From NCBI GenBank assembly GCA_965652025.1, contig CBFGTM010000011.1, positions 11,171-75,170 of the forward strand: a stretch of DNA of 64,000 nucleotides. The letters run 5' to 3'. Below the pieces are notes generated by a model. It was not told where the DNA came from. It did not search any database and saw only the letters and a program-made list of their open reading frames with translations. Shown here one piece after another: positions 55,167-55,870 of the stretch. The first letter of the stretch is position 1; every line of letters starts with the position of its first letter. The position numbers and the translations under genes are program-made. This stretch comes from an uncultured Gemmatimonadales bacterium. Its GTDB lineage: Bacteria > Gemmatimonadota > Gemmatimonadetes > Gemmatimonadales > GWC2-71-9.

Positions 55167-55766
55167 CTAATTGCTACACTGGCAGTCGACGCACCCATGC
55201 GTGAGACAGGTTCCGCAGCACCGGGCCAACTGTCGCCGCAGTGCCTCCCGGGCCCGGTGCAGCCGGACTCCCGCATTACCAGGAGTTATCCCTGCCTCCG
55301 CCGAATAGCTGCGCACGCTGGTGCCGTCGAGGTCGACCCGGCGAAGCGCCGCCGCATATTCAGGCTTGAGAGTGTCGAGCAAGCTCAGGACGCAGGCGCA
55401 GACCACACGCTCGAGCTCACTATCCGAGGTGCCGGCCTGATCGGTTTCGGCGGCAAGCCGTTCCAGTGCCCGGCCCTGGGTATCCTTCCGGCGGAAATAA
55501 TCGGTCATGGCGTTTCTCAGCACCCGGTAAAACCAGGCCGTCGCTGAGGTCGAGCTCTCGAGCGCAGGGGTATGCTCGAGGCTCCGAACGAAAGCCTCTT
55601 GCAGGATGTCTTCGGCATCATCACGGGAGCCGATGCGACGGTCCACGAAAGCCAGGAACCGGGCGTGGTTCTCCAGCAACAAGCCGAGCACGTCGGGTTC
55701 CTGGGGATCCCGCTCGACCTCGCCAGGATCGGCAAAGCCGAGCGGACCAGTCTCATCTACTCGCAT
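55167..55766 (-). CDS. ECF sigma factor with C-terminal Cys-rich domain (CorE-like)
   Basis: Part of ORF 55167..55841. Start set to ATG 55766. Region 2 DAEDILQEAFVRSLEH and WFYRVLRNAMTDYFRRK. Region 4 LKPEYAAALRRVDLDGTSVRSYSAEAGITPGNAGVRLHRAREALR. Tail CCGTCLTHGCVDCQCSN. No anti-sigma gene downstream. Confidence 0.85.
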   Translation of the reverse strand: MRVDETGPLGFADPGEVERDPQEPDVLGLLLENHARFLAFVDRRIGSRDDAEDILQEAFVRSLEHTPALESSTSATAWFYRVLRNAMTDYFRRKDTQGRALERLAAETDQAGTSDSELERVVCACVLSLLDTLKPEYAAALRRVDLDGTSVRSYSAEAGITPGNAGVRLHRAREALRRQLARCCGTCLTHGCVDCQCSN

Positions 55767-55870
55767 CCACACCCACAGTCGCAGCTGCCCTCGTCGCAGG
55801 GGCAGTCCGCACCACAGCTGCAGCCGCACCCGCACGGACACTCGTCCAGCAACTCTCTCACGTTACTCAT
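55757..55870 (-). CDS. Unannotated 37-aa Cys-rich (metallothionein-like) small ORF overlapping the sigma factor start
   Basis: Below the ORF-track size cutoff. The reverse complement reads ATG AGT AAC ... TAG = MSNVRELLDECPCGCGCSCGADCPCDEGSCDCGCGCE (11 Cys in 37 aa). GGAGAGGA Shine-Dalgarno lies 4 nt upstream of the ATG. Its 3-prime end overlaps the sigma factor ATG by 10 nt. Confidence 0.55.
   Translation of the reverse strand: MSNVRELLDECPCGCGCSCGADCPCDEGSCDCGCGCE

Follow-up and report, generated by a model that had tools for sequence, protein, structure and literature searches.

A metallothionein-like small gene overlapping the gene for a CorE-like sigma factor in an uncultured Gemmatimonadales bacterium

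We analyzed a stretch of 64,000 nucleotides from an uncultured Gemmatimonadales bacterium (contig CBFGTM010000011.1), hereafter the window, in which a very short, cysteine-rich open reading frame (ORF) lies on the minus strand and ends inside the start of a gene for an extracytoplasmic function (ECF) sigma factor. We consider it probable that this ORF encodes a metallothionein-like thiol peptide, induced by metal as a target of the CorE-type sigma factor next to it, and that it is the leading cistron of an autoregulated operon that also encodes this sigma factor. The comparisons described below indicate that the small ORF is a real, conserved gene. The main features are listed here.

55757..55870, minus strand: metallothionein-like small gene, 37 aa, 11 Cys, MSNVRELLDECPCGCGCSCGADCPCDEGSCDCGCGCE, sequence read directly
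55874..55881, minus strand: Shine-Dalgarno (SD) site of the small ORF, GGAGAGGA, 3 nt before the ATG
55757..55766, minus strand: 10-nt stop/start overlap, ATGCGAGTAG, in which the TAG of the small ORF lies over the sigma ATG (55766-55764)
55167..55766, minus strand: CorE-like (ECF44 / ECF238) sigma factor, 199 aa, Pfam Sigma70_r2 and Sigma70_r4_2
55392..55400, minus strand: CxC linker motif C123-A-C125 between sigma2 and sigma4, invariant in a 12-sequence alignment
55176..55220, minus strand: C-terminal Cys-rich domain of the sigma factor, CCGTCLTHGCVDCQC, residues 183-197, five invariant Cys
55922..55948, minus strand: putative ECF-type promoter of the small-ORF/sigma operon, exact pattern match

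The small ORF and the sigma factor gene

The small ORF runs from its ATG (55870-55868) to a TAG (55759-55757). Its predicted product is acidic, with 11 Cys (30%), no aromatic residues and no His, and its Cys residues form eight CxC motifs, counting overlapping occurrences, and no CxxC. The sequence-only reading which had described this ORF gave its coordinates, its peptide sequence and its 11 Cys, all of them borne out when we read the minus strand; the SD site that it reported is present, as is the 10-nt overlap with the sigma start. The sigma ATG in the window has no good SD of its own, and for that reason the overlap is a candidate site for coupling by termination and reinitiation.

A scan of all six frames for Cys-rich ORFs (18-90 aa, at least 6 Cys, at least 15% Cys, at least 3 CxC) returned the 37-aa ORF as the sole match in the 64-kb window. 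Around related sigma genes the scan gave 19 metallothionein-like matches in 593 kb, against 4 in 823 kb of unrelated control DNA, all of the latter being Arg-rich junk; the small ORF is thus more than chance expectation.

The protein encoded by the second gene has the architecture of a group-4 sigma factor, sigma2 and sigma4 only (Pfam Sigma70_r2, E = 1e-13; Sigma70_r4_2, E = 2e-7; no further domain). Its best NCBIfam match is SigZ, with a score under the cutoff of that family; SigZ has also been placed within ECF238 (PMC7826278). Homologues with 45-75% identity to it occur in Gemmatimonadota, Myxococcota, Acidobacteriota and Planctomycetota, the closest ones in the genome scan being encoded in metagenome-assembled genomes (MAGs) of Gemmatimonadales (69-75% identity). 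A CxC motif between sigma2 and sigma4.2 defines ECF44 and is essential in CorE and CorE2 (PMC4937300), and this motif together with a C-terminal Cys-rich domain, also essential in both proteins, is the hallmark of the CorE group (PMC4937300; PMC8999054). Both are found here: in an alignment of 12 sequences spanning Gemmatimonadota, Acidobacteriota, Myxococcota, Planctomycetota and Eisenbacteria the CxC linker is invariant, and so are C184, C187, C192, C195 and C197 in the pattern C-G-x-C-x4-C-x2-C-x-C, with CCGTCLTHGCVDCQC corresponding to the Cys-rich domain of about 20 aa that characterizes the group. The 199-aa protein ends in ...CCGTCLTHGCVDCQCSN, followed by a stop codon at 55169-55167, so the Cys-rich C-terminus noted by the sequence-only reading is really there, and its CorE-like call is supported by the invariant linker and the invariant domain. 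No anti-sigma family was found among the neighbouring ORFs with Pfam or NCBIfam.

Residue C183 (55218-55220, minus strand) makes a CC doublet at the start of the Cys-rich domain. The doublet is present in 16 of 136 relatives; in most of the others the residue ahead of the invariant Cys is S, A or T. CorE2 and CorE are switched between Cd/Zn and Cu by one Cys/Ala difference in this domain, and we considered whether the doublet corresponds to Cys174, the specificity switch of CorE2; it could not be mapped onto that residue, as the Cys spacings do not match.

The 37-aa peptide has the properties by which the metallothionein class is defined, namely a small size, 15-30% Cys, few or no aromatic residues and CxC, CC or CxxC motifs. 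It matched no Pfam or NCBIfam family, and a Pfam search with four of these related peptides gave no match at E up to 10, to PF02069 (SmtA/BmtA) or to any other family. A profile search of sequences in the PDB returned only metallothioneins, all at non-significant E-values, the best being a beta-domain fragment of rabbit MT-2A (E = 0.18, non-significant).

Protein databases contain hardly any such peptides. An exact look-up of eight of them among ~15 billion proteins found none, a profile built from 11 peptides recovered no more than two database proteins, each annotated with a start that is miscalled and too long, and among 1.84 billion representative proteins a profile search gave six matches. 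The longer relatives in the protein database are named 'hypothetical protein' at most and have no domains; annotation pipelines almost never call these Cys-rich genes of 20-70 aa.

Three types of peptide are found behind the same promoter: peptides of 20-40 aa in Gemmatimonadota, peptides of ~59 aa in Acidobacteriota and Polyangia, and Lys-rich myxobacterial peptides of 46-53 aa. The second type (L008, L018 and L054) has a single His and the arrangement …CNPCHA…CCCG…CGCG…CEC…, while the Lys-rich type (L007, L009, L019, L179, L207 and L220) reads CRCEKxSCGC…CxCGGxCxCAAAK.

Conservation and gene order

A genome scan with the sigma protein, taking one genome per species, gave 80 loci; the sigma loci at 43% identity or more, 59 in genomes, were searched within 4 kb. 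The sequence-only reading had proposed that frame, start and Cys pattern should recur in related loci if the ORF were a gene, and they do: a Cys-rich small ORF lies near the sigma gene in 19 of the 59 genome loci by the fixed criteria, with two further loci (L011 and L006) just under the thresholds, and in 31 of 74 sigma loci from an independent metagenome scan that covered 1.5 kb only. The pattern is most regular in Gemmatimonadota, where each of the eight genome loci with upstream sequence shows, directly upstream of the sigma gene and on the same strand, a Cys-rich ORF of 20-37 aa that begins with ATG (L011, one of the eight, falls under the strict thresholds). The metagenome locus L202 encodes a sigma factor 90% identical to that of the window and a peptide with one residue different, and has the identical 10-nt overlap. 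All 11 tabulated homologues begin with ATG, and GGAG or GAGG SD sites stand ahead of most of them, the site in L003 being weak. Cultured Sorangium, Archangium and Corallococcus loci were also retrieved, and they had no such ORF within the flanks read.

The comparison of synonymous and nonsynonymous changes, likewise suggested by the sequence-only reading, points in the same direction. The ratio of nonsynonymous to synonymous differences (pN/pS) of the small ORF is 0.18-0.48 in seven pairs, and all 11 Cys are kept in the window, L001, L197 and L003 despite 2-6 TGC/TGT switches. In the Cys-rich part, substitutions at codon positions 1, 2 and 3 of the peptide frame number 24, 29 and 66, and the third position of this frame is position 1 of the sigma frame.

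These results bear on the proposal that there is no gene at all, the ORF being a chance one or the out-of-frame shadow of a sigma factor that starts further upstream, at GTG 55841, a case which the sequence-only reading had itself named as one that would undo its interpretation. The sigma frame is indeed open back to 55841, and GC-rich DNA yields many spurious ORFs. Such a start would give the sigma factor the N-terminal extension VRVRLQLWCGLPLRRGQLRLWVW, and in four relatives (L015, L053, L150 and L002) the sigma frame is interrupted by stops upstream of its start; because of these stops, and since the substitutions concentrate at peptide third positions, where they would land on position 1 of sigma codons, we reject the upstream start. 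The conservation of the ORF across phyla speaks against a chance ORF. A further variant is that the ORF encodes the precursor of a ribosomally synthesized and post-translationally modified peptide (RiPP), SCIFF- or methanobactin-like, considering that such precursors can be small and Cys-rich. When precursors of the SCIFF/ranthipeptide type and other Cys-rich RiPPs were considered, no radical-SAM protein, MbnB/C or other maturase was found adjacent, the neighbours being an ArsR regulator, the sigma factor, a CDF transporter and a CYCXC protein, and there was no NCBIfam match, so that this candidate was rejected. Taken together, we regard these explanations, in which the ORF is either no gene or a RiPP precursor, as highly improbable.

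The position of the ORF relative to the sigma gene varies among loci, being upstream, downstream, divergent or convergent. In Gemmatimonadota, as well as in some Polyangia and Eisenbacteria, it stands upstream in the same orientation as the sigma gene; in Blastocatellia and some myxobacterial MAGs it is found downstream and has a promoter copy of its own. The sequence-only reading had emphasized the overlap of the two genes, and its conservation is partial: the -10 overlap recurs with an identical junction in L001, L197, L002 and L202 but is limited to these loci and the window, which form one clade, with a possible -13 overlap in L180, an unclassified MAG. In the remaining co-oriented loci the gap between ORF and sigma gene is +9 to +98 nt. 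Because the sigma ATG lacks a good SD in all these co-oriented loci, translational coupling or another initiation route for the sigma factor is likely.

Six of the loci (L003, L014, L015, L016, L053 and L178) have a GC-rich hairpin in an ORF-sigma spacer of 55-98 nt. The hairpins (-27 to -41 kcal/mol, z -1.3 to -4.0) end 2-20 nt before the SD-less sigma ATG and are alike in position, their sequences being different; four of the loci have GTATATT or GTATACT after the hairpin, at 6-8 nt from the sigma ATG. This element could be a leaky terminator which sets the peptide:sigma ratio, or else a -10 box for a leaderless sigma mRNA.

The arrangement in the window, with its 10-nt stop/start overlap, a sigma ATG without good SD and Cys at 11 of 37 codons, also invites the view that translation of the ORF alone matters, either by delivering ribosomes to the sigma start or by sensing Cys-tRNA. 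This is the leader peptide gating sigma expression that the sequence-only reading had listed among its options, and it does not agree with the wider comparison: the peptide is under purifying selection, with each Cys kept through synonymous changes; homologues occur away from any sigma start, downstream, divergent or convergent, under their own promoter; and the overlap does not extend beyond the window's clade, L180 possibly excepted. As to an attenuator in particular, this candidate was rejected: the ORFs overlap and leave no room for a terminator or antiterminator, no terminator-like site was found, and Rfam gave no match. We judge a leader function to be improbable.

A different role for the peptide would be that of a regulatory partner, acting on the sigma factor by donating or stripping metal or by holding it inactive, in the manner of a mini anti-sigma factor or a metallochaperone. 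The two genes are tightly linked and in places overlapping, so that their products would be made in fixed proportion, their order is kept in all eight Gemmatimonadota genome loci with upstream sequence, and classically an ECF sigma factor shares its transcript with its regulator (PMC8999054). The peptide itself does not resemble a zinc-binding anti-sigma (ZAS) factor, as it has no His, no HxxxCxxC and no Pfam or NCBIfam match, and with 37 aa it is too short for a helical anti-sigma fold; CorE and CorE2, moreover, operate with no anti-sigma factor (PMC4937300). The ORF is often found under its own promoter copy in downstream, divergent or convergent position, which is how a regulon target behaves, and it is missing near ~60-65% of the related sigma loci within the flanks read. 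Thus, of the buffering partner or pseudo-anti-sigma factor put forward by the sequence-only reading, the tight linkage stands, but the association is not an obligatory one, and we consider a partner of this kind unlikely, though worth keeping in mind.

The shared promoter and the neighbouring genes

The reading that we prefer, a metal-induced thiol peptide as target of the sigma factor, also draws on a promoter motif shared by these loci. In the window it consists of a -35 element TGTAAT (55948-55943), a 16-nt spacer and a -10 element CGTT (55926-55923) followed by AGCAG, that is, TGTAAT-N16-CGTTAGCAG at 55948-55922, 52 nt upstream of the ATG of the small ORF. The consensus over loci is G-TGTAATG-N14-GCGTC. 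TGTAAT-N16-CGTC(AGCAGG) stands 40-80 nt upstream of 25 of the 27 Cys-rich small ORFs in genomes, and a relaxed form of the motif has 57 matches in 646 kb of sigma loci versus 7 in 823 kb of control loci, a control count that leaves out the motif copies by which control loci were selected. The extended motif TGTAAT-N16-CGTYAGCAG was followed up in loci that came mostly from a genome-wide scan and are mostly chance matches in unrelated taxa; among the matches listed, 19 of 130 are followed by a Cys-rich ORF, and all 19, which include seven loci missed by the sigma search, adjoin a CorE-like sigma gene.

In sigma loci the motif also precedes genes for P1B ATPases (L012, L017, L020, L021, L051 and L052), HMA-domain, YHS/TRASH and cupredoxin-like proteins, and sometimes the sigma gene. 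This set matches the regulon of CorE as defined by experiment, in which copB and copA stand together with genes for an HMA protein and for outer-membrane efflux (PMC3107203). Because its spacing and its CGTC element fit ECF promoters, the motif is read here as the putative promoter at which sigma factors of this group act. The small-ORF/sigma region gave no match to an Rfam family, and neither a sigma-70-type promoter nor a terminator was found in it.

The window contains the motif twice, against 0.32 exact matches expected. The second copy and the genes around the operon are the following.

53292..53318, minus strand: second promoter copy, TGTAAT-N16-CGTCA, exact match
48561..53270, minus strand: inferred regulon operon, from strand and spacing only
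52455..53270, minus strand: outer-membrane beta-barrel-like ORF, first ORF of the inferred operon
48561..50690, minus strand: CopB-type P1B ATPase with CPH motif and His-rich N-terminus
~53456-53570, minus strand: C-terminal remnant of a multicopper oxidase, 35 residues, inside ORF 53456-53731
53595-54059, minus strand: membrane-anchored CYCXC/PCYCGC-family protein (NCBIfam NF041379, 104 bits versus a cutoff of 90)
54138-54449, minus strand: secreted-looking Cys/Ser/Gly-rich ORF of 103 aa, between the two promoter copies, like the CYCXC gene
56052-58690, plus strand: ArsR-headed genes, in which a metallophosphoesterase, a DUF47/PhoU_div protein and an MIP channel follow ArsR
55999-56041, plus strand: imperfect inverted repeat TCATATCCGGAT / ATTCGGATACGA, 11-53 nt before the ArsR ATG

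The second promoter copy lies ~22 nt upstream of the beta-barrel-like ORF (53270..52455), which has a strong SD, and two uncharacterized ORFs sit on the same strand between this ORF and the ATPase. The motif-headed operon that ends in the CopB-type ATPase probably serves this regulon as its export arm. The sequence-only reading had placed both a CopB-type ATPase and a multicopper oxidase within 7 kb: the former is confirmed by its CPH motif and His-rich N-terminus, but of the oxidase only the 35-residue remnant is left (…WLLHCHNLYHHMGGMAMELRYG, covering positions 99-132 of 137 in Pfam Cu-oxidase_2, with the upstream part missing). The remnant, probably what is left of a gene in decay, extends over the 3' end of the CYCXC gene; L011 has an intact oxidase at the equivalent place.

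On the other sides of the pair, a CDF transporter gene is convergent to the sigma gene, and an ArsR/SmtB-family gene, whose product carries an ELCVCDL motif, is divergent from the small ORF and heads a gene set that looks like an arsenic-type operon. The inverted repeat before it may be the ArsR operator; it does not overlap the ECF-type promoter. No synteny of the ArsR, CDF, CYCXC and outer-membrane genes of the window with related loci was found, the P1B ATPases being the only ones that recur.

The proposed circuit and known systems

Of the roles that the sequence-only reading had suggested, a metallothionein co-expressed with its regulator is the one favoured by the conservation of the ORF, the purifying selection on its Cys residues, the shared ECF-type promoter and the metal-efflux regulon. 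We propose that the small ORF gives a cytoplasmic metallothionein-like peptide with 11 thiolates, and that it would be the first, and the CorE-type sigma factor the second, cistron of a two-gene operon transcribed from the sigma factor's own target promoter, TGTAAT-N16-CGT(C/T). The sigma factor would sense metal through its own CxC motif and Cys-rich domain, without need of an anti-sigma factor; once activated by metal, it would bring about the synthesis of more sigma factor and of a thiol peptide that sequesters the metal, and from the second promoter copy it would drive the export operon ending in the CopB-type ATPase. In the window's clade, sigma synthesis would probably be tied to translation of the peptide because of the stop/start overlap and the lack of a good SD before the sigma ATG. 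The co-expressed buffer would also build negative feedback into the circuit, since the peptide removes the inducer, and the response would be self-limiting. In this scheme we infer from sequence that the promoter functions and that the peptide binds metal, and likewise which metal it is, the translational coupling and the feedback.

As for the metal, 11 thiolates suffice for a divalent cluster of four metals, as in the mammalian alpha-domain (M4Cys11), while about 6 Cu(I) are bound by the CxC-rich metallothioneins of fungi and mycobacteria. Copper is suggested by the CopB-type ATPase and by the CorE-like regulon, Zn/Cd being also possible.

Several observations weigh against this scheme. The peptide has no significant homology to any characterized metallothionein family in Pfam, NCBIfam or PDB, and because of this the name 'metallothionein' is given here by composition and function; the three types of peptide are perhaps not mutually homologous. 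The absence of the ORF from the majority of related sigma loci, given above, belongs here as well, and all homologues stem from uncultured MAGs or metagenomes. Regarding the promoter, the window has CGTT, not CGTC, and the motif was derived in this analysis alone, the published CorE site appearing only as a figure.

The same components could also work as a two-part metal switch, in which the peptide, made in fixed proportion, exchanges metal with the Cys-rich domain of the sigma factor or competes with it for metal, and thereby sets the threshold and the shut-off of the response. We offer this as a tentative and rather unlikely extension. Were it true, the metallothionein would do what an anti-sigma factor does, and would do so for sigma factors of a class believed to lack one.

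What is new, if the preferred scheme of a sigma-controlled thiol peptide holds, would be a largely unannotated family or set of metallothionein-like peptides and a new regulatory wiring, and no new principle. The sequence-only reading had remarked that a CxC peptide upstream of and overlapping such a sigma factor was undescribed, and we too came upon no description of one in the searchable literature. Our search found no Cys-rich small gene or metallothionein tied to a CorE-like sigma factor, which is weak evidence given that most subscription journals were not covered; in the literature so searched, the CorE and CorE2 regulons are described without a metallothionein, and bacterial metallothioneins without a link to ECF sigma factors. 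To our knowledge, few bacterial metallothionein families have been recognized (SmtA/BmtA, MymT and a few others), and Gemmatimonadota, Acidobacteriota and Myxococcota, all of them soil phyla, are as far as we know usually scored as being without metallothioneins. A sequestration arm would thus join the CorE-type regulon, so far known for export and oxidation only, and the pair would represent a natural circuit that co-expresses a sensor with a buffer of its own inducer. In practical terms, TGTAAT-N16-CGTC would help to find, in metagenomes, regulons of the CorE type as well as small metal-binding genes that have stayed hidden.

Among known systems the closest are CorE and CorE2 of Myxococcus xanthus, with which the sigma factor of the window shares the sigma2 and sigma4 domains as its only ones, the CxC linker and the C-terminal Cys-rich domain; no anti-sigma domain was found nearby in the window. 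Like the regions of CorE and CorE2 (PMC3107203, PMC4937300), the neighbourhood and the inferred regulon include genes for a P1B ATPase, for an outer-membrane protein and for a CDF transporter. The differences are that the sigma gene of the window is preceded and overlapped by a metallothionein-like ORF, whereas no small Cys-rich gene is described in the operons or regulons of CorE and CorE2 and the gene upstream of corE2 encodes a lipoprotein, and that the spacing in the Cys-rich domain differs from the residue numbers published for CorE2, for which reason metal specificity cannot be transferred from CorE2.

The cyanobacterial SmtA/BmtA-SmtB pair is similar in that a small Cys-rich protein, metal-induced there and predicted to be so here, is encoded beside a metal-sensing regulator, and in the window an ArsR/SmtB-family gene is also near the peptide gene, here divergent from it. 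The peptide of the window, however, is shorter than SmtA/BmtA and has no His, no zinc-finger-like core and no match to PF02069, and the regulator proposed for it is an activating sigma factor instead of the repressor SmtB. The ArsR gene of the window carries ELCVCDL, stands at the head of what looks like an arsenic-type operon and shows no synteny with related loci.

MymT of Mycobacterium tuberculosis (RicR regulon), the metallothionein of Neurospora crassa and yeast Cup1 are, like the peptide of the window, very small and CxC-rich, and the N. crassa protein (1t2y) was among the weak PDB profile matches. MymT and the fungal copper metallothioneins are copper-inducible, cytoplasmic and placed in a regulon with copper export genes, the placement suggested for the window peptide by its promoter and neighbourhood. 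They have no significant sequence similarity to it, and their genes respond to a CsoR-type repressor or to the activator Ace1, in contrast to the ECF sigma factor proposed here. Finally, although the sequences are unrelated, the peptide shares with the alpha-domain of mammalian metallothionein (M4Cys11) the presence of 11 Cys in ~30 residues with CxC and CxxxC spacing.

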